Shown: positions 8,406-63,552 of the stretch, in pieces
Numbering within the stretch: the first letter of the stretch is position 1
Layout: each line of letters starts with the position of its first letter
Origin: Candidatus Buchananbacteria bacterium
Lineage (GTDB): Bacteria > Patescibacteriota > Patescibacteriia > 2-01-FULL-39-33
Assembly (NCBI GenBank): GCA_041666945.1
Contig: JBAYFY010000002.1
Span: 64,701 to 128,700 of the forward strand
Length of the DNA stretch: 64,000 nucleotides
Direction of reading: 5' to 3'
Notes under the pieces: model-generated
What the model was told of the DNA's origin: nothing
What the model saw: only the letters and a program-made list of their open reading frames with translations
Databases searched by the model: none
Translations under genes and position numbers: made by a program

Positions 8406-10136
8406 ATGGGCAGCGCTTTATACCGCAAATACCGGCCGCAGACCTTTGCGCAAATGATCGGCCAAAACCATATCAAAATCACCCTGCAGCATCAGCTGGA
8501 AAGGGGAGAATCGGCGCACGCTTACTTGTTTTGCGGTCCGCGCGGTTTGGGCAAAACCACCAGCGCCAGGTTGTTCGCCAAATCCATTAATTGCGAGAAG
8601 CGCGTAAACGGCGAAAGCGAACCCTGCAATGCTTGCCCGTCTTGCTTGGATATCATGGCCGGCCGCAGCGTGGATATCATTGAGATTGACGCCGCCAGCA
8701 ATACGGGTGTGGATAATGTCCGCGAAAATATTATTGAGAACTCACGCTTCACGCCGGTTAAGAGCAAGTATAAGGTGTTTATTATTGATGAGGCGCACAT
8801 GTTATCTAACGCCTCGTTTAACGCCTTGCTTAAGATTATGGAGGAGCCGCCGGCGCACGTGCTGTTTATTCTATGTACGACGGAAATCCACAAACTGCCG
8901 CTGACCATTATTTCCCGCTGCCAGCGTTTTGATTTCAAGAAAGTTACAGCCGAACAATTATTGAAACGTCTGCAGCTGATTGTTGAGGGCGAGAACAAAA
9001 AGGTTGAAGAAGAAGTGCTCAAGCGCATCGTAGTGGTTTCTGAAGGATGCGTGCGCGATGCGGAAAGTTTGCTGGCCAAGATTCTGTCCTTGGGCGATGA
9101 TATCACCCTGGAACAAGCCGAGATCGTTTTGCCGCGCAGCGATTTTCAGATCATTCTTGATTTTGTGGAATACCTGGCGGAAAAAAACGCCGCCGCCGCC
9201 GTGGAGCATCTCAATCGCTTAATGGAAGAAGGCGTGGATTTGTCGGTATTTACGGAAAACCTGTTGGAATTTTTACGGCAGATGATGCTGGTTAAAGTCA
9301 ACGGCCGCTTGGCGGTTTTCGGTTTGGAATTCAATGACGATTTGGCGGAAAATATCAAGGATTTAGCTGATAAATTCAGTTTTGCCGAAATCGTGGAGAT
9401 GGTGGAGATTTTTTCCGATAAAGCCAAAGAAATCAAACAAGCGCCAATCATGCAATTTCCTTTGGAAATCGCCGTGATCAGATTAGTGGAGCGCGTCTCC
9501 TGCGCCAAGCCGGATAAAATAATTTTCGCCGCCGCATCAGCGCCGGCGGTTGCCGCCGCTCCTACTGTTCCTGCGGCCGGCAAACCGGCTGCCGTCGCCC
9601 CGAGCGTCGCCATAAAAAAAGATACGTCAACCGCTCATGATAAAACTGAAACGGCGACAGTACCGGCCAGCCGCCGGCCAGCTGCTAGTCAGCCGACCAT
9701 TGCCGCCGCTGCCAGTCAGCCGACTTTGGATCAAAATGTGTCTTTGGCCGATATCGCCGCCAACTGGGGCCAGCTTATCAATCGTCTAATCAAGACGAAT
9801 TTTTCCCTGGGATCGCTCTTGCGCATCAGTCAGCCGCTGTCTTGCGACAAAGGAGTGTTGCAGGTCGCTGTTACCAGTTTATTCTATAAGAACCGTCTGG
9901 AGACCCAAGATAACCAGAAAGTGGTAGAAGACACTTTATTGGAAGTGGCGGGGATTAATATCAGAGTCAAAGGAGTGGTGTCGCAAACCGTGGTGCCGCT
10001 GGAGGTAGCGATTGACTATGGCGAGGATTTGGCTGTGCCGTCCAATGATTTTTCACCGCCGCCGGTTCCGCCGGCTCCTGAAACCGTTCCGCCTATTCGG
10101 CTGGATCCGACAGAGGATGTGTTAGGTATGCTATAA
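8406..10136 (+). CDS. dnaX: DNA polymerase III subunit gamma/tau
   Basis: N-terminal clamp-loader AAA+ motifs (GPRGLGKTT, the zinc module CNACPSC, the SRC motif) and a Pro/Ala-rich linker. Confidence 0.9.
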   Translation: MGSALYRKYRPQTFAQMIGQNHIKITLQHQLERGESAHAYLFCGPRGLGKTTSARLFAKSINCEKRVNGESEPCNACPSCLDIMAGRSVDIIEIDAASNTGVDNVRENIIENSRFTPVKSKYKVFIIDEAHMLSNASFNALLKIMEEPPAHVLFILCTTEIHKLPLTIISRCQRFDFKKVTAEQLLKRLQLIVEGENKKVEEEVLKRIVVVSEGCVRDAESLLAKILSLGDDITLEQAEIVLPRSDFQIILDFVEYLAEKNAAAAVEHLNRLMEEGVDLSVFTENLLEFLRQMMLVKVNGRLAVFGLEFNDDLAENIKDLADKFSFAEIVEMVEIFSDKAKEIKQAPIMQFPLEIAVIRLVERVSCAKPDKIIFAAASAPAVAAAPTVPAAGKPAAVAPSVAIKKDTSTAHDKTETATVPASRRPAASQPTIAAAASQPTLDQNVSLADIAANWGQLINRLIKTNFSLGSLLRISQPLSCDKGVLQVAVTSLFYKNRLETQDNQKVVEDTLLEVAGINIRVKGVVSQTVVPLEVAIDYGEDLAVPSNDFSPPPVPPAPETVPPIRLDPTEDVLGML

Positions 10137-10144
10137 TTATAGTA

Positions 10145-10357
10145 TCGTCATTTCCGCAATTATAACATCGTCATTCCCGTAATTATAGTATCGTCATTCC
10201 CGTAACTATAATATCGTCATTCCCGTAATTATAGTATCGTCATTCCCGTAACTATAATATCGTCATTCCCGTAACTATAATATCGTCATTCCCGTAACTA
10301 TAATATCGTCATTCCCGTAACTATAATATCGTCATTCCCGCGCAGGCGGGAATCCAG
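10145..10357. repeat. Tandem array of about 8 copies of a 23-bp unit TCGTCATTCCCGTAACTATAATA, ending in a TCGTCATTCCCGCGCAGGCGGGAATCCAG palindrome
   Basis: Perfect and near-perfect direct repeats start at the dnaX stop codon. There are no unique spacers, so this is not a CRISPR array. Confidence 0.85.
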
Positions 10358-12210: not shown

Positions 12211-12640
12211 GGGATTTTTTAGTTGTCATTCCCGCATCCCTTTCGTCATTCCCGCACTCCCTTCGTCATTCCCGCACTCCCTTCGTCATTCCCGCGTACC
12301 TTGTCTGCCGGCAGGCAGGGGCGGGAATCCAGGTTATAATTTTTTTTACGATACCCCTTCGTCATTCTCACTTTCGTCATTCCCGCACTTCCTTCGTCAT
12401 TCCCGCGAAGGCGGGAATCCAGATTTCTTGTCATTCCCGCGTACCTTTCGTCATTCCCGCACTCCCTTCGTCATTCCCGCGAAGGCGGGAATCCATGCTA
12501 TCATTTTTTATGATACCTTTCTTTAGGAGAAAGGTATCACCAAAGAGTCGCGAGCGAAGCATAAATCATGGCTGGATTTTATGCTCCACCTGCCTGCCGG
12601 CAGGCAGGATTACAAAACTTTTCTGGTCACTCTCGCATAA
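12211..12640. repeat. Dense non-coding repeat field with the GTCATTCCCGC half-site and GCGGGAATCC palindromes
   Basis: Three clusters of 20-bp GTCATTCCCGC half-site repeats, each ending in a GCGGGAATCC palindrome. It also holds a perfect 12-bp-stem hairpin tgatacctttct/agaaaggtatca and CTGCCGGCAGGCAGG palindromes. The listed 195 aa ORF 12111..12698 is just translation of these repeats. Confidence 0.8.
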
Positions 12641-13492: not shown

Positions 13493-15706
13493 ATGGTCAA
13501 ATATGTTTTACGCGCCGCTCCAATGGCCAAGGATTTTAAAATTGATTATGCCAAGGAGTTAAACGAAGATCAATACAAGGTCGTAACCGAGGGCTACGGG
13601 CCTTGTTTAGTTTTGGCCGGCGCCGGCTCGGGCAAGACGCGGACTCTGGTGTACCGCGTGGTGTATTTGTTGGAGCAAGGCGTGCCCGCTTCCAGCATAA
13701 TGCTCGTGACTTTCACCAACAAAGCGGCCAAGGAAATGTTGGAGCGCATTGAAGTGCTGCTTCACGGCGAGGCCAAGGGGTTGTGGGGTGGGACTTTCCA
13801 TCACTTGGGCAATCGGCTGTTGCGCATGTATGGCGAGCGCATTAATATCGCTAATAACTTTACGATTTTAGATGAAGAGGATTCTTTGACTTTACTCAAG
13901 AATTGTTTGAGCCGCAGTAATCCTCCGGAAGACAAATATTTTCCCAAGGCCAAAGTCATCCGCTCCATAATTTCTCTGTCGCAGAATCTGTGTCAGCCCA
14001 TCCGCGAAGTTATTGCCGCGCGTTACGATTATCTTAAAGACAGCTACTTGCCGTGTATCTTGGAAGCTGCTGATCTATACAAAGAACGCAAAACGCAAAT
14101 CAACGCGTTGGATTTTGACGACCTCCTGATCAAGTGGAACGAACTGCTGGAACAAGCGCCGGAAATAAAAAAGCGTTTGGGTGAGAAGTTCGCCTACATT
14201 TTAATTGATGAATTCCAAGACACCAACGCTTTGCAATCCAAAATCATCGCCAATCTGGCCGCGCCCCAGCGCAATATCCTGGCGGTGGGAGATGACGCCC
14301 AAAGCATCTATGGTTTTCGTGGCGCCGATGTCAACCATATTTTGGATTTTCCCAAGCAGTTCCCCGATGCTAAGATTTTACGGCTGGAGATCAACTATCG
14401 TTCCACTCCCGAGATTCTGGCTTTGGCCGATACTTCCATTAACCATAATGACGCCAAGTTTGAAAAGCATTTGAAAGCGATTCGGGCCAAGGGTGCTAAG
14501 CCGGCCGTGGCGGCTTTGACTGATAATTATCAGCAAGCGGAATTCGTCTGCCAACGGATTCTGGATTTGCAACGCGAAGATGGTTTGCCGCTTAACAGCA
14601 TGGCCGTATTATTTAGATCGCACTTCCAATGTCTGGAATTGGAAATGGAACTCAACAAGCGCAATATTCCATATCAGATGCGTGGGGGACTGCGGTTTTT
14701 TGAACAGGCGCACTTAAAAGATATCCTGGCTTACTTAAAAATCTTAGCCAACTTCCGTGACGAGGTTTCTTGGTTGCGGTTACTTAGTATGCAAGGCGGG
14801 ATTGGCGAGATGACGGCGGAAAAGATCTGGCAATGGTTAAGGCAATTTGATGGCGTTTCTTCAATTTTTTCTACATCTTCTTCCGTCATTCACGACCCCT
14901 CTTCCGTCATTCACGACCCCTCTTCCGTCATTCACGACCCCTCTTCCGTCATTCCCGCGCAGGCGGGAATCCAGCATAATAATTCAACCTGGATTCCTGA
15001 TCAAACCAGGAATGACATTTCCTTGGGCGCTAAGGCCGCCAGTGGCTGGTCGGCTTTAAAGCGCACGCTGGAAAAGATTGCGCGAATAGATAAAAATGAT
15101 TTACCGGCGCTTGTTACCGCTATTATTGATTCGGGTTATGAAAAATATTTGCAGGCCAATTATGAGAATTTTCAGGATCGGTTGGATGATTTGACGCAGT
15201 TGACAGAATTCGTCAAGTCCTATGACAGTTTGGAAAGATTTTTGGCCGATACCGCGTTGTCGGAAAACTTTCAGGGCCAATCGCGCGCGCCGCGGCCGGA
15301 GAATGGCAATGAACAAATAATCTTGTCCACCATTCATCAGGCCAAGGGCCTGGAGTGGCCGGCAGTGTTTGTGATCGGTTTGGCGGAGGGCATGTTCCCG
15401 CACGCCAAGGTTTATGACAAACCGGAGGAACTGGAGGAGGAACGCCGGTTGTTTTACGTGGCTTGCACCCGCGCCAAAGACCAGCTGTATTTGAGTTATC
15501 CATTGTTCGGCCGCGACAGCATGCTGCATCCGTCGCAATTTATTAAGGAACTGCCGAGCAAATTGTATGATCGCTGGGATGTGGAGGCGGGCGAAGACGA
15601 GGTGATTTACGTGGATGAAGAAGGGGAACGCGCGTCAGGTCCGGGCAAACGGAAGGGCATTTTGGATTTTGATCCGGAACTGGAGATTGAGGAATCGGAT
15701 TATTAA
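13493..15706 (+). CDS. UvrD/PcrA/Rep-family ATP-dependent DNA helicase (the start is uncertain: 13493 or 13523)
   Basis: Walker A AGAGSGKTRTLV, the DEFQDTN motif, and the VTRAK-like motif VACTRAKDQLYLSY. The N-terminal codons of the listed ORF overlap an AT-rich promoter region that carries a TTATCCACA box. Confidence 0.85.
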   Translation: MVKYVLRAAPMAKDFKIDYAKELNEDQYKVVTEGYGPCLVLAGAGSGKTRTLVYRVVYLLEQGVPASSIMLVTFTNKAAKEMLERIEVLLHGEAKGLWGGTFHHLGNRLLRMYGERINIANNFTILDEEDSLTLLKNCLSRSNPPEDKYFPKAKVIRSIISLSQNLCQPIREVIAARYDYLKDSYLPCILEAADLYKERKTQINALDFDDLLIKWNELLEQAPEIKKRLGEKFAYILIDEFQDTNALQSKIIANLAAPQRNILAVGDDAQSIYGFRGADVNHILDFPKQFPDAKILRLEINYRSTPEILALADTSINHNDAKFEKHLKAIRAKGAKPAVAALTDNYQQAEFVCQRILDLQREDGLPLNSMAVLFRSHFQCLELEMELNKRNIPYQMRGGLRFFEQAHLKDILAYLKILANFRDEVSWLRLLSMQGGIGEMTAEKIWQWLRQFDGVSSIFSTSSSVIHDPSSVIHDPSSVIHDPSSVIPAQAGIQHNNSTWIPDQTRNDISLGAKAASGWSALKRTLEKIARIDKNDLPALVTAIIDSGYEKYLQANYENFQDRLDDLTQLTEFVKSYDSLERFLADTALSENFQGQSRAPRPENGNEQIILSTIHQAKGLEWPAVFVIGLAEGMFPHAKVYDKPEELEEERRLFYVACTRAKDQLYLSYPLFGRDSMLHPSQFIKELPSKLYDRWDVEAGEDEVIYVDEEGERASGPGKRKGILDFDPELEIEESDY
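14872..14975 (+). repeat. In-frame MITE insertion inside the helicase coding sequence
   Basis: Three copies of the 21-bp unit cttccgtcattcacgacccct are followed by cttccgtcattcccgcgcaggcgggaatccag. It translates in frame as SSVIHDP repeated three times, then SSVIPAQAGIQ. The same palindrome family occurs in intergenic DNA. Confidence 0.8.
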
Positions 15707-39237: not shown

Positions 39238-40473
39238 ATGCGATTAATTGAAACCGTAAAATTATCTTTTTCCGTTTTGCGCACCAACCGGACGCGCAGT
39301 TTTTTGACTTCGCTCGGGATTATCATCGGCATTGCCGCCGTCATCGTGATTATCTCCGCCGGCGCCGGCGCGCAATCATTGATTGTCAATCAATTCAACG
39401 CTATCGGTACTAACTTAATCGGCATTCTGCCCGGCTCAAGCGATGAAGACGGTCCGCCCGCCTCCGCTTTCGGCATTATTCTGCAAACGCTCAAATACGA
39501 GGACGCCCAGGCCATCGCCCAAAGCGTGCCCCACGTTACCGCCGTTTCTTCTTATAACACCGGCATGGCCACCGCCTCATATCAAAGCGCCAAAACGGAC
39601 GCAACTTATTACGGCGTCATGCCTGAATATTTAGACGTGGAAGACACGGGCGTGGACAAGGGGAGGTTTTTTGACAACGATGAAGACAGGGGCAGCGTTA
39701 AAGTCGCCGTGCTGGGCTGGCAAGTGGCGAGGGATTTGTTTGAGGGGCAGGAACCCGTGGGCAAGAAGGTTAAAATCGGCAAGGAATTTTTTGAAGTTAT
39801 CGGCGTGATGCGCCAGCGCGGCGTTTCCGGCTTTCAGAATAATGATGAAATCATTTTGATTCCGGCGCAAACCGCGCAAAAAATAATGCTGGGCGTGCGC
39901 CATGTCGGCTTTATCCGCGCCAAGGTTGATAAAAAGGAAAACTTGCCGCAGGCGGTGGACGATATCCGCTTGCTGTTGCGCGACCGCCATAATCTGCTGG
40001 AATCAAAAGTTGATGATTTTAATATTCGCAATACGGCCGACGCCATTAAGACCTTGACTTCCATCACTGATGTGTTGAAATTTTTCCTGGCCGCCATCGC
40101 CGGCATTTCCCTGTTAGTCGGCGGCGTAGGCGTTATGAATATCATGCTGGCCTCGGTCAATGAGCGCGTCCGCGAAATCGGCCTGCGCAAAGCCGTCGGC
40201 GCCAAGCCCAATGACATTATGGTGCAGTTTTTGGCCGAGTCGATCACCGTCACTTTGACCGGCGGCGTCGTAGGCATTATCATTGGCTCGTTGATTTCGG
40301 CGTTAGTTGCCATAGTCGCCAGATATTTGGGCTATGATTGGGATTTGGTGGTTTCGCCGCTATCCATATTTATGGGTTTTGGCGTGGCCTTTGTCGTCGG
40401 TTTGATTTTTGGCATTTATCCGGCTCGCCGGGCGGCCAAACTTAACTCCATTGAGGCGTTAAGGTGGGAATAA
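39238..40473 (+). CDS. ABC transporter permease (FtsX/MacB-type)
   Basis: An N-terminal transmembrane helix, a large periplasmic domain, and a C-terminal FtsX 3-TM domain. Translationally coupled to the ATPase gene. Confidence 0.85.
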   Translation: MRLIETVKLSFSVLRTNRTRSFLTSLGIIIGIAAVIVIISAGAGAQSLIVNQFNAIGTNLIGILPGSSDEDGPPASAFGIILQTLKYEDAQAIAQSVPHVTAVSSYNTGMATASYQSAKTDATYYGVMPEYLDVEDTGVDKGRFFDNDEDRGSVKVAVLGWQVARDLFEGQEPVGKKVKIGKEFFEVIGVMRQRGVSGFQNNDEIILIPAQTAQKIMLGVRHVGFIRAKVDKKENLPQAVDDIRLLLRDRHNLLESKVDDFNIRNTADAIKTLTSITDVLKFFLAAIAGISLLVGGVGVMNIMLASVNERVREIGLRKAVGAKPNDIMVQFLAESITVTLTGGVVGIIIGSLISALVAIVARYLGYDWDLVVSPLSIFMGFGVAFVVGLIFGIYPARRAAKLNSIEALRWE

Positions 40474-40506
40474 TAAGTTAAGTTGTTAATCGTCTTTTTA
40501 GCTGGT

Positions 40507-40535
40507 AAATCGCTTATTTCAGGCGATTTTTTTAA
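40507..40535 (+). terminator. Rho-independent terminator after the exporter operon
   Basis: aaatcgc-ttatttcag-gcgattt followed by tttttaat. Confidence 0.5.
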
Positions 40536-40585
40536 TTTTATTTTATCTAATTTTAGCTATAATAAGCTATATCAAGCTATATTAT

Positions 40586-40626
40586 GTGGATAAAACACTT
40601 GACAAAATATTTAAGGTGTGATATAA
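40586..40626 (+). promoter_or_regulatory. Perfect consensus extended -10 sigma70 promoter with an upstream TGTGGATAA
   Basis: TTGACA at 40598-40603, a 17-nt spacer, and TGaTATAAT at 40618-40626. TGTGGATAA sits at 40586-40594. It is almost identical in architecture to the promoter at 16977..17026. Confidence 0.6.
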
Positions 40627-40631
40627 TAGCT

Positions 40632-41320
40632 TATTCAAGATAGCGGTTGTGGATAAGTCGATATATAGACAATAATCATTATCTTGCCAGCAGTTTAAAA
40701 ACTGTTTTAAAAGAGTTCTTCGGGGCTCTTTGTCAGGGCGGCATATGGCTTATGTCATAGATCGCCCTTGACAAAGGTTCCCGAGATAGGGGAGTATTGG
40801 AAAACGGAACATTAAATTAAATAATTTGTTCGCGGCAGCTTGTCGCCGCATTGATATGATTAAGGCGTATGCTTGTCCGCCTAAATCTGTTCCAAAGCCA
40901 AAAGCCGAGGAGCATAGGAGGAGATTAAGCTGAAGAGGGGGCCTGGCTTGAAATTATATATTCGCCAACCGCCTTAATTCACTTCTTCAAGTCTTGATTG
41001 TATCAATGCGGTGATTACTTTGGCCGTCAAAGCAGGCGGGCAAACTTGTCTACTGAAAGGTGGGCACGCCGCAAGCACTTTCTGAAAGAAGAACTTTCCC
41101 GCCGTCGGGCTATTATCCCGCCGGATCGGTAGATCTCCTTTCTCCCGGGGAGGCGTTGTAGCAATACGCGCCTCCCCCACACGCCTCAGACAGTATGGTT
41201 CGAGAGTGTATAATCAAATCCTCACAAAGGAAACTTGGTTTTACGCTCACGGCCGAAATACTGTTTGAGGCGTGTGTTGCAAAATAGCAATTTCATTTAC
41301 GAGCCATCTCGTAAAGGAGG
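40632..41320 (+). other. About 690 nt apparently non-coding transcribed region, a candidate structured RNA or long leader
   Basis: No ORF of 60 aa or more on either strand. Many stable hairpins, for example ctttgtcagggcg...cgcccttgacaaag and ggggaggcg-ttgtagcaatac-gcgcctcccc, and a long-range pairing ttaaggcg/cgccttaa. It lies between a strong promoter and the zinc-ribbon mini-genes. Confidence 0.3.
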
Positions 41321-41324
41321 GCCT

Positions 41325-41525
41325 ATGATAGCTCAATGCTGCGTTTGTCATAAGGTGCGTTTGTCTGGTAATGTTTGGGTGGGTCAATTTATACCCCCGG
41401 GAGAACAGGTCTCCCATGGCTATTGCCCGGAATGCGCCGCACAAGCGCGTGAAGGCATGCAGCGGGAATTGGCCGTTGATCGGCAAAGACGGGAGCCCGC
41501 CAATGGCAATGGCGAGAAAAAATAA
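41325..41525 (+). CDS. Small zinc-ribbon protein A (66 aa)
   Basis: An AAGGAGG Shine-Dalgarno sits 4 nt upstream. The protein carries CCVC...(27 aa)...CPEC. Confidence 0.5.
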   Translation: MIAQCCVCHKVRLSGNVWVGQFIPPGEQVSHGYCPECAAQAREGMQRELAVDRQRREPANGNGEKK

Positions 41526-41691
41526 ATGCCCGGCTTGTATTAAAATCGAAATAACGCCGGGTCAGTGGAAACACGCCGTTTTGCTTGCCGGCGAAGAAAC
41601 AGTGCCGCAATACTGCCCGCATTGCAAGGCAGTAATTGAGGGATATGCTCGAATGGTTACGATCAATTACGGTCGCGACCGAAAAAAATAA
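41503..41691 (+). CDS. Small zinc-ribbon protein B (62 aa), a paralog of A that overlaps it out of frame
   Basis: CPAC...(27 aa)...CPHC with the same spacing as A. The start overlaps the 3' end of A by 23 nt. There is no Shine-Dalgarno, so translational coupling is possible. Confidence 0.42.
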   Translation: MAMARKNKCPACIKIEITPGQWKHAVLLAGEETVPQYCPHCKAVIEGYARMVTINYGRDRKK

Positions 41692-41707
41692 AGTAAGAAC
41701 ATTGTGA

Positions 41708-41741
41708 GGAGGAGGCCGAGCGCTTCCTCCTTTCGCTTTTT
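41708..41741 (+). terminator. Rho-independent terminator after the zinc-ribbon pair
   Basis: ggaggaggc-cgagc-gcttcctcc followed by tttcgcttttt. Confidence 0.5.
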
Positions 41742-41744
41742 AAA

Positions 41745-41835
41745 GATTATGGATCCCCGGACAAATCCTCCCGCTTACGCTTACGGATTTTCCAGGCCTA
41801 TCTGCCGGCAGGCAGGGATGACGATAAAGGATATT
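41745..41835. repeat. About 90-bp interspersed element (copy B)
   Basis: Aligns with 10366..10490 and contains CTGCCGGCAGGCAGGGATGAC. Confidence 0.6.
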
Positions 41836-42242
41836 GGTTAATAATTATTTATCCACAGCCCGACTCTTGACAATTATATTGTTTTTACGAAAATTTGTTA
41901 TATAATTTTATATTAAGGGAGGACATTAAGCGCCAAGCATTTTCAATCGCACTTTCCTAAAATTTTTTTTAGGATCACACTTAAGTGTGATTTCGAGAAT
42001 TCTTATCGCGTCTTCTCCGAGTCCCGCCCCCGTGGCGGGACTTTTAATTGGCTAATGAGCGAGCGAACCAGCGCTTCAAAGCGCTGGATTCCGAGCGAGC
42101 GACGCCAATATAGTCAAATACTGCTCGGCTTGCCGAGCTATTTAGTACGCAAGTTTCATTATCACCCTTATCACCATAGGGCTTGCCCCGAGGACTATAT
42201 TGGTTGATTTTTTTGATTAATGCTATAATTTAATTAAGCACT

Positions 42243-42620
42243 ATGTCGCTTAAGCAATTAATCATTACCATAATCATCGCCACCTTGTTGTGTTGGGCCA
42301 GCTGGCTGCTGGTTATTTTTGAGGTGGATCCGACGACCGCCGGCTTTTACGGCCTGCTGATTTTTTATTCCAGCATGTTTTTGTCTTTGCTGGGCTTGTT
42401 TTTTTTGATCAGTTTCGGTTTTCGCAAAATGTTTAATCGGTTGGAAATGGAATACAAGCTGGTGGGCATGTCTTTTCGCCAATCGTTTTTTTTCTCGTTG
42501 GCGATAGTGGGATTTTTCTTTTTGCAGAGCAAGGATTTATTGACTTGGTGGAATAGTATTCTGCTGGTCTTGGCCTTGGTGATTTTAGAATTTTTCTTTT
42601 TGAGTTATCGGAGAAAATAG
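42243..42620 (+). CDS. Hypothetical 4-TM membrane protein
   Basis: 125 aa with four hydrophobic segments. Confidence 0.6.
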   Translation: MSLKQLIITIIIATLLCWASWLLVIFEVDPTTAGFYGLLIFYSSMFLSLLGLFFLISFGFRKMFNRLEMEYKLVGMSFRQSFFFSLAIVGFFFLQSKDLLTWWNSILLVLALVILEFFFLSYRRK

Positions 42621-42664
42621 AGCAATAGAAGCCGTCCCGTTGCCGGGACGTCTTTTTTGTTATT

Positions 42665-42975
42665 ATTTTCTCTTTTCTTTTTTCTACGTCACCCCCTCCT
42701 GTCATTCCCGCACCCCCTTCGTCATTCCCGCACCCTCTTTGTCATTCCCGCGTAGGCGGGAATCCAAGTTATAATTTTTTTGTCATTCCCGCACCCTTTT
42801 GTCATTCCCGCACCCTCTTTGTCATTCCCGCGAAGGCGGGAATCCAGGTTTAGAAATTTAGATTTCATTTCTGGTACCTTTCTCTATTGTCATTTCGACC
42901 GAAGCCGACGTAAACGTCGGCGCAGTGGAGAAATCGCTTGAATTAAATTAAAGGGATTCCTCCGCTACGGTCGGA
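42665..42975. repeat. Repeat field upstream of pheS with an internally deleted inverted-repeat element
   Basis: Two clusters of GTCATTCCCGC 20-bp half-site repeats, each ending in a GCGGGAATCC palindrome. At 42885..42975 there is an internally deleted element with inverted termini TTGTCATTTCGACCGAAGC...GCTACGGTCGGAATGACAA. The listed pheS ORF start lies inside it. Confidence 0.8.
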
Positions 42976-43020
42976 ATGACAAAAGGTAATTTGACTAAAC
43001 TAAAGCAAAACAGTTATAAT

Positions 43021-44109
43021 ATGAGCAATATGAAAGAAAAACTTAGCCAATTAAAGGCGCAATTCACCGAGGAATCGGCAAAGGTCAAATCAGCCAAGGA
43101 GCTGGATGATTTGGAGAACAGATTTTTGAGTCGCAAGAGCGGACTGCTGACCGGTATCATGAAGGGGATCAAGGACGTGGCCAAGGAAGAGGTGGCCGAA
43201 GTCGGCGCTTTGGCTAATGAAACCAAAGAATATATTGTTGAGGGGCTGGAAACGCTTAAGGGCAACTTGGGCGGCGCCGGCTCTTTTAATTTTGATTTTA
43301 CCGTGCCTGGCCGCAAGCCGGCGGTCGGCCATTTGCATTTGGCCACCATTGCCATTCGCGAGATTGAAAGCATCTTACAGCCGCTGGGGTTTGTCCGAGC
43401 GCGCCATCCGGACGTGGAATGGGATTATTACGCCTTTGAGACCTTGAATATGCCCGGCGATCATCCGGCGCGCGATGATTGGGAGACATTTTTCATTGAC
43501 GAAGCGCCGATTAAGATGAACTTGCCGGAAAATTCTTTAAAACTCGTCAAAGAGGGGAGACGCTTGCTCACGCCGCACACTTCCAGCATTCAGGTGCGCG
43601 AAATGGAGAAGGGTGTCCTGCCTATTCGCATGATGAATATTTCCAAATGCTATCGCCGGCAAATTGACGTGTCGCATGTGCCGATGTTCCATCAGTTTGA
43701 GGGCTTGGTGGTGGACGAGGGGATTAATATCACTCACTTAAAAGGCACGATTGATTATTTCGTCAAGAAATTTTTCGGCGAGGATCGCACGATTCGTTTG
43801 CGCCCGCATCATTTCCAATTCACGGAGCCGAGTTTTGAAGTGGATATTTCCTGCGGTTTGTGCCATGGCACGGGCAAGTTGGAAGACGGCAGTTCTTGTC
43901 GTATGTGCAAAGAGGGCTGGCTGGAACTCGCTGGCGCCGGCATGGTGCACCCCAATGTCCTTAAGGCCGGCGGCATTGATCCCAATAAGTATTCTGGTTT
44001 CGCTTTCGGCTGGGGCGTGGAGCGTTGCTACAGCATGAAGTCGGGTTTAAATATTGATGATTTGCGGTTGATGTATAAGAATGATTTGAGGTTTAATGAG
44101 CAGTTTTAA
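43021..44109 (+). CDS. pheS: Phenylalanine--tRNA ligase alpha subunit
   Basis: Class II aaRS motifs including FQFTEPSFEVD and GWGVERC. The start is set at the first ATG downstream of the repeat. Confidence 0.9.
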   Translation: MSNMKEKLSQLKAQFTEESAKVKSAKELDDLENRFLSRKSGLLTGIMKGIKDVAKEEVAEVGALANETKEYIVEGLETLKGNLGGAGSFNFDFTVPGRKPAVGHLHLATIAIREIESILQPLGFVRARHPDVEWDYYAFETLNMPGDHPARDDWETFFIDEAPIKMNLPENSLKLVKEGRRLLTPHTSSIQVREMEKGVLPIRMMNISKCYRRQIDVSHVPMFHQFEGLVVDEGINITHLKGTIDYFVKKFFGEDRTIRLRPHHFQFTEPSFEVDISCGLCHGTGKLEDGSSCRMCKEGWLELAGAGMVHPNVLKAGGIDPNKYSGFAFGWGVERCYSMKSGLNIDDLRLMYKNDLRFNEQF

Positions 44110-44202
44110 TATTAGCTTGTAGATTTTATAATTTTGCATTAATCACCCATAAAAGGTTTTGCAGATAAAAAGTAGTATAAGATTTATTAATAGTCACATT
44201 AG

Positions 44203-45150
44203 ATGAGATATATGTCTATTCCAAATTTTGAACAAATAATGAGTCCAATGATTAAGGATATCATTGATGGCGAAAATCATTCAATGAATGATATCGTCGA
44301 TCATTTATCGGAATTTTTTAATTTAACTGAAGATGAAAAAAATGTTAGATATCCCACTAGTGGAGCAAAAATTTTTCAAAATAGAGTTAGATTTGCTCGC
44401 TTATATTTAATGAAGGCTGGTTTAATCGAATCACCAATCCGTGGTTTTATAAAACTAACATCAGATGGGTTAATGCTTTTTAAAAAAGAAACCCCAAACA
44501 TTAATTTAGATTATCTTGAAAAATTACCGAAATTTCAAGAATTTCAAAAAATGCAAAAAGAAACACAAAGAAATAAAAAAGATAGTTCTAATAATGAAAG
44601 AATTGTTTTGCATGCAGAAAATAATCTGGAACAAATTCCCGAAGAACAATTAGAAAATGCATTCCAGATAATTAATGATAATTTATCCGTTGAAATATTA
44701 GATACTTTAAAAAAGTGTCAACCATTATTTTTTGAAAAAATAGTAGTTGATCTTGTATTAAAAATGGGCTACGGTGGTTCGTTTAAGGATGCTGGTGAAG
44801 CCATAGGTAAAAGTGGTGATGGTGGAATTGATGGGATAATTAAGGAAGATAGACTTGGTTTAGATTTAATTTATTTACAAGCTAAAAGGTGGGAAAATGT
44901 AGTCCCAGTAAAAGAGATAAGAGATTTTGCTGGATCCTTAATGTCTAAAAAGGCTAAGAAGGGAATTTTTATTACTACATCAAGTTATCCCACGTCAGCT
45001 TTCGAATTTGTAAAATCAGTTGACCATAGAATAATACTAATCGATGGTCAACAATTAGCGAAATTATTAATTGATTTTAATGTTGGAGTTACAACGGAAT
45101 CAGTTTATGAAATTAAAAAAATTGATGGCGATTATTTTATAGAAGAATAA
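44203..45150 (+). CDS. mrr: Mrr-family restriction endonuclease (Mrr_N winged helix plus Mrr_cat)
   Basis: The catalytic region carries GGSFKDAGEAIGKSGDGGIDGII ... YLQAKRW. It is AT-rich relative to its flanks and is inserted between pheS and pheT. Confidence 0.85.
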   Translation: MRYMSIPNFEQIMSPMIKDIIDGENHSMNDIVDHLSEFFNLTEDEKNVRYPTSGAKIFQNRVRFARLYLMKAGLIESPIRGFIKLTSDGLMLFKKETPNINLDYLEKLPKFQEFQKMQKETQRNKKDSSNNERIVLHAENNLEQIPEEQLENAFQIINDNLSVEILDTLKKCQPLFFEKIVVDLVLKMGYGGSFKDAGEAIGKSGDGGIDGIIKEDRLGLDLIYLQAKRWENVVPVKEIRDFAGSLMSKKAKKGIFITTSSYPTSAFEFVKSVDHRIILIDGQQLAKLLIDFNVGVTTESVYEIKKIDGDYFIEE

Positions 45151-45162
45151 TTTATAAACTTA

Positions 45163-45195
45163 AATATCTCGTACAACTGGCTAAAGTCGTAGCCC
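45163..45195 (+). repeat. 33-bp direct duplication of the pheT 5' end
   Basis: ttaaatatctcgtacaactggctaaagtcgtag at 45163 versus ctaaatatctcttacaactggctaaagtcgtat at 46088, the first codons of pheT. Confidence 0.7.
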
Positions 45196-45663
45196 GTTGT
45201 CATTCCGACCGAAGCGTAGCGTAGTGGAGGAATCCCTTTAAAAGCACTTTATGGTTAAATATTACTACTTGTATATTATGGCTTCAGAATCCGGAACTTT
45301 ATATGTCGGGATTACAAATAATCTTGGTCGGCGAGTATGGGAACATAAAAATGAAATTATTGAGGGCTTTACTAAAAAATACGGCTGTAAGAGATTGGTT
45401 TATTATGAATACGGACAAGATGTTAATGGCGCTATCTGTAGAGAAAAACAAATTAAAAATTGGAATAGAAAAAAGAAAGAATTTTTGATAAAAACAATTA
45501 ACCCAAAATGGATTGATTTAAGCAAAGAAATGTTCGGTTTTAAAGAATTTTGAGGGATCCCTCCACTCGGCCTTGAGGCCTCGGTCGGGATGACAAGAAA
45601 AAGAAAGGCCTCGGTCGGGATGACAAGAAAAAGAAAGGCCTCGGTCGGGATGACAAGAAAACA
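45185..45663 (+). mobile_element. MITE-family element carrying a GIY-YIG nuclease gene, a putative autonomous copy, with a triplicated right end
   Basis: The left terminus GTCATTCCGACCGAAGCG...GTGGAGGAATCCC at 45185-45235 and the inverted right terminus GGGATCCCTCCAC...CCTCGGTCGGGATGAC at 45553-45596 bracket the GIY-YIG ORF. Three 30-bp tandem copies of the right terminus follow at 45577-45663. The termini match the empty element at 42885..42975. Confidence 0.5.
45251..45553 (+). CDS. GIY-YIG nuclease superfamily protein (about 100 aa)
   Basis: YYLYIMASESGTLYVGITNNLGRRVWEHK, matching the GIY, YIG, R and E motifs. Confidence 0.8.
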   Translation: MVKYYYLYIMASESGTLYVGITNNLGRRVWEHKNEIIEGFTKKYGCKRLVYYEYGQDVNGAICREKQIKNWNRKKKEFLIKTINPKWIDLSKEMFGFKEF

Positions 45664-45665
45664 AT

Positions 45666-46079
45666 TTGATTAAAAATATGAAAGGTACGGCAGAACAATT
45701 CAAAAAAGATAATATAAAAAAGTATCATAAAGGTGCAATTCTTAAACTAAGAGATATAGCAAGAAAAACAAAGTTGGTTTTTGAGTTTGTTGAGGATCGT
45801 TTCTATTATACTCAAAGCAATTTATCAGAAAAAGTATTCTTTATTGATAAGTTAAAGAAATTAGATGTTGATAAAAGCAAGTTAGCTTATCCCAATGGGT
45901 GGGAAGTCGGAGAAATTGAGTACAGATTTGGTTATTATATTATAAGTCAATATGGGAGAAGAAAAGGACATTGGACTTTTGCCCAATTTTGCCCAATATT
46001 TCCCCTTAATGATCTAAAAAATATTTTACAGAAAATGAAAAATAAAGGCATTATAGGAAAAAATTTTAAAATATTATAA
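45666..46079 (+). CDS. Hypothetical protein (137 aa), part of the pheS/pheT insertion
   Basis: Six-frame ORF. It is AT-rich and lies between the GIY-YIG element and pheT. Confidence 0.5.
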   Translation: MIKNMKGTAEQFKKDNIKKYHKGAILKLRDIARKTKLVFEFVEDRFYYTQSNLSEKVFFIDKLKKLDVDKSKLAYPNGWEVGEIEYRFGYYIISQYGRRKGHWTFAQFCPIFPLNDLKNILQKMKNKGIIGKNFKIL

Positions 46080-46081
46080 AT

Positions 46082-48505
46082 ATGAATCTAAATATCTCTT
46101 ACAACTGGCTAAAGTCGTATGTCAAAACCAGTTTGACGCCGCAGGAATTTGCCAAACGGATTTCGCTTTCCGGACCATCAGTGGATAGAGTTCAGGAAAA
46201 AAGCACTGATTTTGGTAATGTCGTGGTCGGAAAAATGTTGGAAATCAGTAAACACCCCAATGCCGACAAATTGAATGTCGCCAAAGTTGATGTGGGCAAA
46301 AAAGAGCCGATCCAAGTGATTTTTGGACAGATGGCGGTGCTTAAAGTCGGTGACCAATTGCCGGTGGCCATTGCGCCAACAACCCTACCGAGCGGAGTAG
46401 AAATACTGGAGAGAGAGATGCGCGGAGTTAAATCGCAAGGCATGTGCTGTTTGGATAGTGAAATCGGATTATCCGACCAGGATAGAGTGACTTTTTTTCC
46501 GCCAGAAGTAAAGCCGGGAACCCCGATCGCTAAGGCGTTAAAATTAGAGGAAGACGCGATTTTGGATATTGAAATCACTTCCAATCGCCCGGACGCCATG
46601 AGCGTTATCGGTATCGCCCGAGAGGCGGCCGCGATTTTGGACGCTAAGTTTTTATATAAACAACCAAACCCCTCCCTCGCTATCCGCAAATCCGTCATTC
46701 CCGCGCACCCAGAGGCGGGAATCCATAATGCTGGATCCCCAACTAAATTGGGGATGACGAAAAAGGGATTGCCGTTATCAATAAAAATAACCGAGCCCAG
46801 GGTCTGCCCCCGCTATTCCGCGATTGTAATGACTGATGTCAAAGTCGGCGCGTCGCCTCTGTGGATGCAACAGCGTTTGCTCGCTTCGGGTTTGCGGCCG
46901 ATTAATAATTTAGTAGACATCACTAACTATATTCTACTTGAATACGGCCAGCCCATGCACGTATTTGATTACGATAAACTGCTGGGCGGGGAAATCAATG
47001 TCCGCAAAGCCAAGAAGAGTGAAAAGATTTTGGCGTTAGACGGCAAAGAATACGAATTGTCCGTCGATCAACTGGTAATCGCTGACAAGCAAAATCCGGT
47101 CGCCGTGGCCGGCGTGATGGGCGGAGAATTGTCAGCCGCTACCGCCGAGACCAAAACCATCGTGTTTGAATGCGCCAACTTCAATCCCGTTTCCGTCCGC
47201 AAGACCTCGCGCGTTTTGAATTTGCGTTCGGAGAGCTCGGCGCTCTACGAAAAGGGGATTAGTCCGGAAAATGTTACGGCCGCCATGTTGCGCGCCATTG
47301 AATTGGCCCAGCAGTTGTGCGACGCCAAGGTTGCCGGCAAATTGATTGACGAAAAATCATACAAATACAAAGATCGGGAAATAATTTTGGACTTGGAGCG
47401 GGTTGATTCTGCTTTGGGCGTCAAAATCAAACCGGCAGAAATAAAAAATAATCTGGAAGCGTTGGGCTTTAAAGTGATCGCCAAACGCGACAAGTTTAAA
47501 GTAACAATCCCTTGGTGGCGAGAGAACGACATGGAAGGCCAGCATGATTTAATTGAAGAAATCGCTCGGATGCACGGCTATCAGAATCTGCCGACGGAAT
47601 TAATGTCCGGCGCTTTGCCTCAAACCATAGCCACGGTTAATTTCGCGCTGGAGGACAAGATTAAGGACGCTCTGGTCGGTTTCGGTTTGACCGAGGTTTA
47701 CACTTATTCTTTTATTTCCGAAAAGCAAATCCTGGGCGCGGGTTTAAAATCCGCGGATCATATCAAGATCGCCAACCCTTTAAGCGCTGATTTTGAGTAC
47801 ATGCGCACCTCGCTTTTGCCCGGCGTTCTGCAGATTATCGCCGAGAATCAGGGATTTTTCCCGGCCGGCAGATTGTTTGATTTGAGCCAGGTATATTTGC
47901 CTTTGGGCGCGAATGATTTGGCTGATGAGAAATTCAAATTGCTCGCGGTTTGCTATGGCGCTGATGCTGAAGGCATGGCCGCCGATGCCAGAGGCGTTTT
48001 GGATGGCTTAATGCAGCGACTCAATATTGACAATTTGACTTTTAAAAAGAAACCGGCCGGCTCGGAAATATATGTTAATGATGTGAAGCTGGGTGAAATC
48101 AAAGTTATTGATAACAAAATTTTGTCCGCTTTCGGCATCAAGAAAGCCGTAGCCGCGGTGGAGTTGGATTTCGCCGCTGTGGCCGCGCTGGCCAAATCCG
48201 CGCCGACTTATCGGCCGATTCCCAAATTTCCGGCGATTGAGCTGGATTTGTCCATGGAGGTTGATAATGTGATTACTTTTGCCGAAGTGGCCAATGTCGC
48301 CAGCGATGCGGGAGCGCCGTTAGTGGATAAGGTTGATTTCTTGTCTGTCTATCAAGGTGAGAAATTACCGGAAGGCAAGAAAGCATTGGCCATTAGAATG
48401 GTTTATCGCGATTTGAATAAGACCCTGGAACTCGCCGAAGCGCAAATCGCGCATGATAAAGTTGTAGCGGAATTAAAAAAGAGTTATAATATAGTTGTAA
48501 GATAA
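46082..48505 (+). CDS. pheT: Phenylalanine--tRNA ligase beta subunit
   Basis: An N-terminal tRNA-binding (OB) domain, then B3/B4, B5, the class II core-like domain, and a C-terminal FDX-ACB domain. It contains an in-frame repeat insertion. Confidence 0.9.
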   Translation: MNLNISYNWLKSYVKTSLTPQEFAKRISLSGPSVDRVQEKSTDFGNVVVGKMLEISKHPNADKLNVAKVDVGKKEPIQVIFGQMAVLKVGDQLPVAIAPTTLPSGVEILEREMRGVKSQGMCCLDSEIGLSDQDRVTFFPPEVKPGTPIAKALKLEEDAILDIEITSNRPDAMSVIGIAREAAAILDAKFLYKQPNPSLAIRKSVIPAHPEAGIHNAGSPTKLGMTKKGLPLSIKITEPRVCPRYSAIVMTDVKVGASPLWMQQRLLASGLRPINNLVDITNYILLEYGQPMHVFDYDKLLGGEINVRKAKKSEKILALDGKEYELSVDQLVIADKQNPVAVAGVMGGELSAATAETKTIVFECANFNPVSVRKTSRVLNLRSESSALYEKGISPENVTAAMLRAIELAQQLCDAKVAGKLIDEKSYKYKDREIILDLERVDSALGVKIKPAEIKNNLEALGFKVIAKRDKFKVTIPWWRENDMEGQHDLIEEIARMHGYQNLPTELMSGALPQTIATVNFALEDKIKDALVGFGLTEVYTYSFISEKQILGAGLKSADHIKIANPLSADFEYMRTSLLPGVLQIIAENQGFFPAGRLFDLSQVYLPLGANDLADEKFKLLAVCYGADAEGMAADARGVLDGLMQRLNIDNLTFKKKPAGSEIYVNDVKLGEIKVIDNKILSAFGIKKAVAAVELDFAAVAALAKSAPTYRPIPKFPAIELDLSMEVDNVITFAEVANVASDAGAPLVDKVDFLSVYQGEKLPEGKKALAIRMVYRDLNKTLELAEAQIAHDKVVAELKKSYNIVVR
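46672..46765 (+). repeat. In-frame MITE insertion inside the pheT coding sequence
   Basis: ccgtcattcccgcgcacccagaggcgggaatccataatgctggatccccaactaaattggggatgacgaaaaagggat. It translates in frame as SVIPAHPEAGIHNAGSPTKLGMTKKG. Confidence 0.75.
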
Positions 48506-63391: not shown

Positions 63392-63552
63392 GGTAGTTAA
63401 TAGGATTATCTGTCACGTGTCATTTCAATTGAAATGACAAGAAATAAAGCAACGGCTGTGATTAATGACATTTTACCAATCTTGAGTCGGTTAGTAAAGG
63501 TTTTTGACAGTTCACTGCAAAAAATGTTATAATTTTTTCATAACTAAAAACA

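Follow-up and report, generated by a model that had tools for sequence, protein, structure and literature searches.

The closest described relatives of the element considered here are the Ssn nucleases, single-domain GIY-YIG proteins of about 94 amino acids (CDD cd10448; Chenal et al. 2025, Nat Commun 16:2388; PMC11893778). The Ssn protein of Neisseria meningitidis binds its repeat, the NTS (CGTCATTCCCGCGMAVGCGGGAATCYRG), exclusively in single-stranded form, cutting a few nucleotides (nt) upstream of it; binding and cutting of single-stranded DNA have been shown for the Neisseria and Wolbachia homologs (PMC11893778). The ssn genes are typically flanked by repeats named SRMs, and a degenerate pattern finds an SRM near 71% of the homolog genes and on both sides of 42% (PMC11893778). 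Neisseria Ssn lowers transformation by NTS-bearing DNA, and the arrangement NTS–ssnA–NTS has been likened, as a hypothesis only, to an insertion sequence and to REP/RAYT (PMC11893778). Here we analyse a 64,000-nt stretch of a Candidatus Buchananbacteria genome (GCA_041666945.1, contig JBAYFY010000002.1, positions 64,701 to 128,700; hereafter the window), in which a GIY-YIG gene enclosed by inverted repeats lies between pheS and pheT, the genes of the alpha and beta chains of phenylalanyl-tRNA synthetase. We consider it likely that this gene encodes an Ssn nuclease accompanied by hairpin SRMs in a pheS–pheT site of variable cargo, and that the duplicated pheT start beside it arose by cassette stacking independent of Ssn.

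The locus resembles the Ssn/SRM system in its single-domain GIY-YIG protein of about 100 amino acids, its inverted GTCAT-hairpin-ATCC flanks, the scattering of its repeats in the genome, the presence of the canonical NTS (CGTCATTCCCGCGMAVGCGGGAATCYRG) in the window, and the matched pairs of nuclease and repeat variants. It differs in its host, a member of the Patescibacteria, in SRMs of the gene's own that are longer, weakly folding and outside the published pattern, in tandem arrays of half units, in an SRM placed in frame inside an essential gene, and in being known from sequence alone. The link between a GIY-YIG gene and a repeat is already known from the Ssn/SRM work (PMC11893778); the central idea having been published in 2025, we do not present it as a discovery. 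The half-unit arrays, the recurrent SRMs in a linker of PheT and the stacking of cassettes at a fixed point go beyond the published description and are modestly new. A text search of the Ssn paper finds no mention of Patescibacteria, and literature searches on GIY-YIG proteins with miniature inverted-repeat transposable elements (MITEs), UPF0213 or REPIN returned nothing relevant and no follow-up to that paper. The locus extends Ssn/SRM to the ultra-small Patescibacteria, where natural competence is regarded as a principal way of acquiring genes (PMC12455944). Competence is the process that Ssn modulates in Neisseria.

The unit formed by the gene and its repeats consists of the following features.

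45197..45238, + strand: left SRM of the ssn unit, TTGTCATTCCGACCGAAGCGTAGCGTAGTGGAGGAATCCC; weak hairpin, outside the published SRM pattern
45251..45553, + strand: ssn-type gene for a single-domain GIY-YIG nuclease of 100 amino acids (PF01541) with invariant catalytic-type residues
45554..45596, − strand: right SRM of the ssn unit, GTCATCCCGACCGAGGCCTCAAGGCCGAGTGGAGGGATCCC on the minus strand, inverted relative to the left SRM
45576..45665, − strand: tandem array of 30-nt units, each made of the right SRM's outer (5') half and a spacer, with similar arrays in L086 and L087

L-numbers are labels for comparison loci or contigs of relatives and homologs. The protein matches PF01541 over residues 4–76 (6.5e-13) and no second Pfam family, and its gene is the only ssn gene in the window. 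Its 190 homologs come from Patescibacteria, Babeliales, Holosporales, Nitrospirota and Betaproteobacteria. Across 29 homologs, 18 alignment columns are invariant, including Y18, R28, H32 and E65, and Y8 is nearly so. Judged by residue spacing, Y8, Y18 and E65 would match Y6, Y17 and E64 of Neisseria SsnA, if the N terminus of SsnA is slightly shorter. Only two distant UPF0213 structures, both determined by nuclear magnetic resonance, match the protein in a PDB search. Some homologs are called with N- or C-terminal extensions, for example …DSSLRSE*, which back-translates to GATTCCTCGCTTCGCTCGGAATGA; such extensions are probably translated repeat arms.

The left arm reads TTGTCATTCCGACCGAAGC…GGAGGAATCCC (45197–45238), and its complement stands at 45554–45596. 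Two inverted arm pairs can be distinguished, TTGTCATTCCGACCGAAGC at 45197–45215 with 45578–45596 (19 nt, 89%) and AGTGGAGGAATCCC at 45223–45242 with 45548–45567 (20 nt, 85%). Six copies of the terminal 17-mer are present in the window (0.08 expected), and the right end carries a 30-nt tandem repeat of 2.9 copies with 100% matches (45576–45661). A sequence-only reading of this DNA had proposed that the GIY-YIG open reading frame sits between inverted termini, that the termini recur without cargo and that the right terminus is triplicated. All of this holds: the cargo-less copy lies at 42887–42982 and has both arms in common with the ssn unit, further copies of the termini are found both with and without a GIY-YIG open reading frame, and the enclosure is not a chance similarity, as the arms recur without cargo and at 21 of 29 homolog loci. 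Every sequence feature listed in that reading is present, at coordinates 0–10 nt off. It also tied the repeats to the GIY-YIG gene and thought of homing; the tie stands, already published as Ssn/SRM, and the homing does not: the activity shown for Ssn proteins is sequence-specific cutting of single-stranded DNA beside the hairpin, neither homing nor transposition.

At these 21 of the 29 distinct homolog loci, GTCA[TC]… lies upstream of the gene and …[GA]TGAC downstream, within 160 nt. The two arms of one locus agree at 11–16 of 16 positions and the arms differ from locus to locus, with variants such as TTCCCGCG, TTGCGAG, GGCCGGG, CCCAGCG and CGCGGGG. At L141, L143, L145 and L151, where the proteins are 47–49% identical, both flanks match the Neisseria NTS consensus GTCATTCCCGCGAAGGCGGGAATCCAG or come within one base of it. 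The closest relatives, 76–82% identical (L084/L085, L086, L087/L088), all carry the GTCATYYCGACC variant of the window (GACC type). Because arms match within a locus, differ between loci and share GTCATYYCGACC among the closest relatives, nuclease and repeat variant appear to co-evolve. From the single GIY-YIG domain of about 100 amino acids, the conserved residues, the inverted SRM arms and the NTS-flanked homologs we infer that the gene encodes an Ssn-type nuclease and that the copies previously labelled a MITE are its SRMs, present as singlets and inverted doublets.

The closest of the homologs (82% identical; L086 811-3416) adjoins conjugation-type genes (PrgI, TraC-like) on a short contig, a hint that conjugative DNA may carry some of the ssn units.

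SRMs are also found at a distance from the ssn gene, as follows.

10134..10357, + strand: array of nine half-SRM units, 23 nt each, closed by a full canonical NTS
12225..12496, + strand: three further half-SRM blocks, each closing with a full SRM
14879..15017, no single strand: 21-nt half-unit array, then a doublet pairing a canonical NTS with an inverted SRM of another kind
42690..42850, + strand: NTS-type SRMs in two blocks, each with 2–3 half units of 19–20 nt (GTCATTCCCGC plus spacer) and then a full hairpin, GTCATTCCCGCG(T/A)AGGCGGGAATCCA
42887..42982, no single strand: cargo-less SRM doublet, two inverted GTCATT(T/C)CGACCG SRMs 15 nt apart, ending just before the pheS promoter
46692..46760, no single strand: in-frame SRM doublet in the PheT linker, adding about 24 amino acids (SVIPAHPEAGIHNAGSPTKLGMTK); fold z = -4.25
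10134-10357, 12225-12330, 12430-12496, 14879-14974, 42690-42767 and 42778-42847, + strand: the six NTS-type half-unit arrays

The more abundant of the two repeat families in the window, GTCATTCCCGCG(A/C)AGGCGGGAATCCAG, is the Neisseria NTS itself. Allowing one mismatch, GTCATTCCCGC occurs 27 times against 1.4 expected, always on the + strand, and the published SRM pattern, HGTCWYN(0-2)YYVSBRHN(0-5)WNVSBRGN(0-2)RNCYNB, matches five times against 0.13 expected, 42820–42847 being among the matches. Canonical NTS copies fold strongly as single-stranded DNA (z = -3.85). The SRMs flanking ssn keep the GTCAT head and the ATCC tail around a longer and different core. Inverted SRM pairs lie at 14948/15016, 42889/42980 and 46694/46758, and the pair 45199/45594 encloses ssn; the doublet is the usual form of the full SRM unit. 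Rfam searches, by E-value over 40–50 kb and at the gathering threshold over the whole window, gave no family for the repeats. A perfect 20-nt palindrome, GTCATTTCAATTGAAATGAC, at 63419-63438 carries the SRM head on both strands.

Including the array at the right end of ssn (45576-45665, − strand), the window holds seven tandem arrays in which the 5' half of an SRM plus a spacer is repeated with a period of 19–30 nt in up to nine copies, each array closing with one complete SRM. All seven grow on the 5' side of the SRM, which is the side of Ssn cutting. Comparable arrays stand at the ends of ssn units in L086 (420-520) and L087 (360-445); the text of the Ssn paper (PMC11893778), when searched, does not mention tandem arrays.

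The doublet in the PheT linker lies in frame within an essential gene. Rickettsia palindromic elements are short palindromic repeats that likewise lie in frame in protein-coding genes without destroying them. The PheT-linker SRM is like them in its reading frame and unlike them in sequence family and host. Rickettsia is listed among the SRM-rich genera (PMC11893778), and these elements and the SRMs may be related.

The ssn unit is one part of the DNA between pheS and pheT, which is arranged as follows.

42633..42650, + strand: terminator-like hairpin belonging to the upstream membrane-protein gene, at the left margin of the repeat-filled spacer that precedes pheS; kept in L004, L005 and L007
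42991..43020, + strand: promoter-like site of pheS, TTGACT-18-TATAAT, 11/12 positions
43021..44109, + strand: pheS, phenylalanyl-tRNA synthetase alpha chain, 362 amino acids, by Pfam and gene calls
44110..46081, + strand: low-GC cargo island between pheS and pheT, 1,972 bp, GC 0.30; empty or otherwise filled in relatives
44203..45150, + strand: gene for an Mrr-type type IV (modification-dependent) restriction endonuclease, Mrr_N plus Mrr_cat; PADLOC mREase_IV
45153..45191, + strand: pseudo-copy of the first 38 nt of pheT, with ATG changed to ATA, ending in a TAG made at the junction
45678..46079, + strand: hypothetical gene, 133 amino acids, abutting pheT, its stop 2 nt before the pheT ATG
46082..48505, + strand: pheT, beta chain, 807 amino acids, by Pfam and gene calls; its first 38 nt are copy 2 of the direct repeat

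Full Pfam domain sets identify both pheS and pheT, whose gene calls were taken from the source contig record (ENA ERZ27249449 k141_1624134). The GC content of the island is 0.30 against 0.48–0.50 in the flanking genes, and at third codon positions its three genes reach 0.17–0.27 against 0.62 in pheS and 0.55 in pheT. These contrasts with the backbone, together with the empty junction of relatives, support the spacer as foreign low-GC cargo. The sequence-only reading, in which about 2 kb of low-GC DNA with an Mrr gene, a GIY-YIG gene and a hypothetical gene splits pheS from pheT, is correct on each point.

By its PheS relatives among GTDB genomes, the contig falls in Candidatus Buchananbacteria of the Patescibacteria. 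Among Buchananbacteria and their relatives (L004–L078) the pheS–pheT gap ranges from 4 nt to 4,179 nt. It measures 4–26 nt in L007, L017, L021 and L023 and 470–4,179 nt in many others, where it is filled with unrelated, mostly lower-GC genes, for example for small membrane proteins and four-helix-bundle proteins. Because the gap varies widely in length and its contents are unrelated among relatives, the junction is a general cargo hotspot inside an essential operon and not a one-off.

The Mrr protein combines an Mrr_N winged-helix domain (PF14338, 2.8e-21) with an Mrr_cat PD-(D/E)xK domain (PF04471, 3.6e-33) and matches PADLOC mREase_IV over its full length (7.9e-74). Its nearest non-self homologs are about 55% identical, and the named ones are mostly from Bacteroidota, which fits horizontal acquisition of the gene; as a pointer to the donor context they are uninformative, the nearest being only about 55% identical. 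The hypothetical protein belongs to a family of three clusters among 5.8 billion proteins and has no match in Pfam, NCBIfam, PADLOC or PHROGs; its AlphaFold2 model has a pLDDT (predicted local distance difference test score) of 38.6 and is unusable. Its gene always lies directly upstream of a pheT start or pseudo-start, in the window, L072 (7120-7519), L010 (1278-1692), L090 (45-446) and L091.

The pheT start is present twice, as a direct repeat of 39 nt with 35/39 identical positions (45153–45191 and 46081–46119). Of the four differences, three are synonymous and one turns ATG into ATA, as would be expected if a related donor allele had supplied one of the copies. The sequence-only reading had reported 33 bp of duplication as a target-site duplication or a homing footprint. 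The duplication is real; its length is 39 nt and the intervals given for it are 3 nt out of register, and neither interpretation agrees with the relatives. In L084 (also L083 and L085), another Buchananbacteria genome from the same sample, an Ssn unit 78% identical to that of the window lies between pheS and pheT, bounded by the arms TTTTGTCATTTCGACC…GGTCGGAATGACAAAA, and there is no duplication. L022 carries a pheT pseudo-start between two unrelated inserted genes, with no SRM and no GIY-YIG gene, and in L011 a diverged copy of the pheT start forms the beginning of an inserted gene.

The most informative comparison is that of L090 and L091, contigs from two sequencing runs that are identical over 448 nt in the region of the hypothetical gene and over 530 nt of pheT from nt 39, 978 nt together. 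L091 (1-1400) differs from L090 (1-560) by an extra cassette of about 800 nt, encoding an NYN-domain protein, after nt 38 of pheT. Upstream of the cassette stands the old start, ATGACCCTCTCCATCTCCTGCAACTGGCTGAAAGAATA|A, closed by a TAA made at the junction; before pheT stands a working start, ATGAATTTAAAT…, unlike the old one, with 7/12 bases just after the ATG differing between pseudo-copy and new start. As the copies differ in an otherwise identical background, they did not arise by fill-in of a staggered cut. The breakpoint is the same within 2 nt in three genomes (window …AAGTCGTA|G, L091 …AAAGAATA|A, L022 …AAGGAA|AA), and the sequences that follow it are unrelated. The same breakpoint thus surrounds unrelated cassettes, and the duplication of the pheT start is independent of Ssn. 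The isogenic pair and the common breakpoint point to an undescribed stacking of small genes in an essential operon with the downstream gene kept.

Several candidate causes of the breakpoint were considered and rejected. A hairpin at pheT nt 40–57 folds no better than shuffled sequence (z = -0.44); the sequence at the breakpoint, TGTCAA or TGTAAA, is not an SRM head; and a dif/Xer-like site matches one arm at 8/11 positions by eye and has no second arm. A metagenome scan for stop-closed pheT pseudo-starts (ATHTCNTRYAAYTGGYTNAARNNNTAR) returned 43 stretches and no new cassette case: a pheT match adjoins two of the 43 (L123 and L131), neither of them cassette-like, L117 is too short to judge, and the other 40 are chance-like. 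At 45179-45194 a small hairpin, GGCTA-AAGTCG-TAGCC, flagged as terminator-like, falls exactly on the junction of the pseudo-copy with the imported DNA; its position may be due to chance.

We propose that the site holds at least two separately acquired low-GC modules. The first would be the type IV Mrr gene with the displaced old pheT start, the second the SRM–ssn–SRM unit with the rare hypothetical gene and a replacement pheT start. Serial import of cassettes is the simplest reading of the order [Mrr + old start][SRM–ssn–SRM + hypothetical gene + working start]: incoming DNA would bring a fresh start and strand the old one upstream, with stacking at pheT nt 36–38 leaving the 39-nt repeat. By homology to the Neisseria and Wolbachia enzymes, the Ssn protein is predicted to bind single-stranded DNA at its cognate hairpin SRM, GTCAT…ATCC, and to cut a few nucleotides 5' of it. 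Its likely role would be to cut incoming or transiently single-stranded DNA and so to modulate recombination near its sites, as in Neisseria transformation. With less confidence, we suggest that in a competent, recombination-dependent host such cuts shape which incoming DNA recombines near SRMs.

Some observations weigh against this account. The two SRMs beside the ssn gene fall outside the published degenerate pattern, having the stem CCGACCG rather than YYVSBRH, and they fold no better than shuffled sequence (z about 0), so that recognition of a hairpin by the Ssn protein of the window is not assured. Most SRMs in the window are of the canonical NTS type and not of the gene's own variant. 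Among the hairpin, the pseudo-SRM and the dif-like site, no cause was found for the common breakpoint at nt 36–38.

An alternative for the duplication is a dedicated capture of cassettes at the pheT start, either by site-specific recombination of an integron-like or IMEX-like kind or by Campbell-type recombination with small circles bearing 38 nt of the pheT start. The common breakpoint at nt 36–38, in the Tyr13 codon, around unrelated cassettes in three genomes agrees with it, as do the compact packing, with the stop of the upstream gene 2–3 nt ahead of every pheT start or pseudo-start and the cassette ATG 5–6 nt past the breakpoint in L091 and L022, and the mosaic of the two L091 copies, which fits a crossover within the shared 20 nt. 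However, no recombinase gene is adjacent, the nearest tyrosine recombinase gene being about 8 kb away, the sequences past the breakpoint are unrelated in the three cases, and the pheT start has no significant hairpin (z = -0.44). The pseudo-start is also missing from most filled pheS–pheT gaps, and the metagenome-wide pattern scan added no further clear case. Integron cassettes and integrative elements that restore their target end are similar in their stacked compact cassettes, each followed by the same short sequence, with the last copy serving as the working gene start; the type seen here lacks an integrase, an attC-like structure and a conserved arm, and has only three or four cases. We regard dedicated capture as possible, although it is not the explanation we favour.

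A further question is whether the SRMs and the ssn unit are mobile. Relatives differ in their SRMs at two places. In the spacer before pheS, the window carries NTS-type arrays and the GACC-type doublet between the conserved terminator and the pheS promoter; L004, the closest relative by PheS (91% identical, among GTDB genomes), carries other SRMs and a GCGAG-type doublet with the same end point, L022 a GACC-type doublet and L020 a complete ssn element, and L005 and L007 are free of SRMs. In the PheT linker, the in-frame doublet of the window is matched at the same place by a different doublet in L006 and by a single reversed SRM of a third variant in L012; the linker has no SRM in L004, L007, L008, L009 and L022. 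These comparisons indicate a rapid turnover of SRMs and their ability to enter new sites. Together, the co-varying arms, the cargo-less doublets, the seven one-sided arrays and the independent SRM insertions in one PheT linker provide material for studying how SRMs spread.

According to a stronger proposal, SRM–ssn–SRM is an autonomous mobile element, the singlets and doublets are its non-autonomous (MITE-like or REPIN-like) derivatives, and Ssn mobilises them through single-stranded intermediates. The co-varying inverted arms that enclose the gene and the cargo-less doublets of its own SRM variant speak for this, as do the SRM blocks found before pheS in the window, L004 and L022 and not in L005 and L007, the full element in L020, the three SRM variants in one PheT linker (window, L006 and L012) and the unrelated contexts of homologs 76–82% identical. 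The seven half-unit arrays, all on the 5' side on which Ssn cuts, are consistent with it as well, the six of NTS type lying on the + strand and that at the right end of ssn on the − strand; with GC skew positive across the greater part of the window, the + strand would serve as template for the lagging strand. On the other hand, the alignments show no defined insertion junction, and no target-site duplication is seen at 42887/42982, 45197/45596 or 46692/46760, with relatives too diverged for an exact comparison of empty sites. Near-identical ssn units at two sites were not found, there being one ssn gene in 64 kb, and the sole gene inside the arms encodes a GIY-YIG nuclease of about 100 amino acids, with no known strand-transfer or ligation activity; the only role demonstrated for Ssn is restriction of transforming single-stranded DNA. 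Presence and absence could also be explained by deletion or by recombination between repeats, the direction of change being unproven. On balance we think autonomous mobility rather improbable.

The comparison with REP/RAYT and REPIN sequences (Nunvar 2010; Bertels & Rainey 2011, PMC3116915; Ton-Hoang 2012) bears on the same question. There too a single-copy small nuclease gene stands between inverted short hairpin repeats that are also dispersed as singlets and inverted doublets, and action on single-stranded DNA has been proposed. The enzyme of the window is, in contrast, a GIY-YIG protein and not an HUH/Y1 transposase, it has no known strand-transfer chemistry, and the repeats carry a 5' GTCAT tag instead of GTAG or CGTC heads. 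IS200/IS605 elements, with their single-stranded 'peel and paste' transposition, are similar in having subterminal hairpins read on one strand, as the lone arrays of the window are orientation-biased; unlike them, the window has no TnpA or TnpB, and its arms are inverted on opposite strands, whereas both IS608 ends are on the same strand. Spreading of repeats by Ssn in the manner of REP/RAYT is possible but unproven, and is put forward here, as in the published work (PMC11893778), as a hypothesis.

The left SRM has its GTCAT 7 nt beyond the end of the pheT-start pseudo-copy, and this end is within about 3 nt of the position at which Ssn homologs would cut, judging by the Neisseria enzyme. It is tempting, if speculative, to let the left end of the imported segment reflect an Ssn cut of donor DNA, and equally speculative to let Ssn cuts generate the half-unit arrays and spread the SRMs. 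In an extended form of this idea, a lone GIY-YIG nuclease acting on single strands would keep the SRM–ssn–SRM units and doublets actively mobile, and its cuts would also make the half-repeat arrays and supply broken ends from which cassette capture starts at sites such as the pheT start; we judge it unlikely. If true, SRM mobility driven by a lone GIY-YIG protein would constitute a new class of prokaryotic transposable element, an analogue of REPIN/RAYT with another chemistry.

We discount the view that the GIY-YIG protein is a free-standing homing endonuclease, of the I-TevI or Seg type, acting on pheT with the duplication as its footprint. GIY-YIG homing endonucleases (I-TevI, T4 Seg) exist, share the catalytic fold and are encoded by small, selfish-looking genes between conserved genes; the gene adjoins a duplicated, target-like sequence, the L084 homolog also lies between pheS and pheT, and the protein weakly matches TIGR01453, the group I intron endonuclease family (E = 1.1e-4). 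That match, however, reaches 22.3 bits against a cutoff of 56 and covers profile positions 5–82 of 215, the catalytic domain only, and the 100-amino-acid protein lacks a DNA-binding domain or extension. L084 has the element and no duplication, L022 and L091 have the duplication and no GIY-YIG gene, close homologs lie in unrelated contexts, and the Ssn relatives show no cleavage of double-stranded DNA. Homing is largely refuted here and in our view very unlikely.

That a staggered cut, on insertion of the GIY-YIG element and the hypothetical gene, left the 39-nt repeat as a target-site duplication is scarcely credible: direct repeats do bracket the inserted segment, but the copies of the window differ at 4/39 positions, those of L091 differ strongly in spite of flanks that match L090 over 978 nt, a similar duplication brackets unrelated cassettes, and the repeat begins at the pheT start codon in every case, which fits import of the start of a donor gene. 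An assembly artefact, such as a chimeric join at the repeats, has a negligible probability, although the contig is from a metagenome assembly and contains repeats, because these repeats (≤39 nt, or 30-nt tandem units) are far below the k of 141 that the contig name implies, NCBI and JGI sources list Mrr and hypothetical proteins of identical sequence with a link to a 212,810-bp contig, and similar architectures reappear in the independent assemblies L022, L084 and L091; the island is probably not an artefact. Exact-protein look-ups of PheT, PheS, Ssn, the hypothetical protein and the membrane protein encoded upstream gave the source contig and no second assembly of the same strain.

No tRNA or tmRNA genes were found in the window. 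Upstream of the pheS spacer, a stretch of about 1.7 kb (40473-42243), in which neither a tRNA nor an Rfam family was found, contains a single small called open reading frame of 66 amino acids. Within this stretch, at about 41750–41822 on the − strand, lies a further SRM variant.

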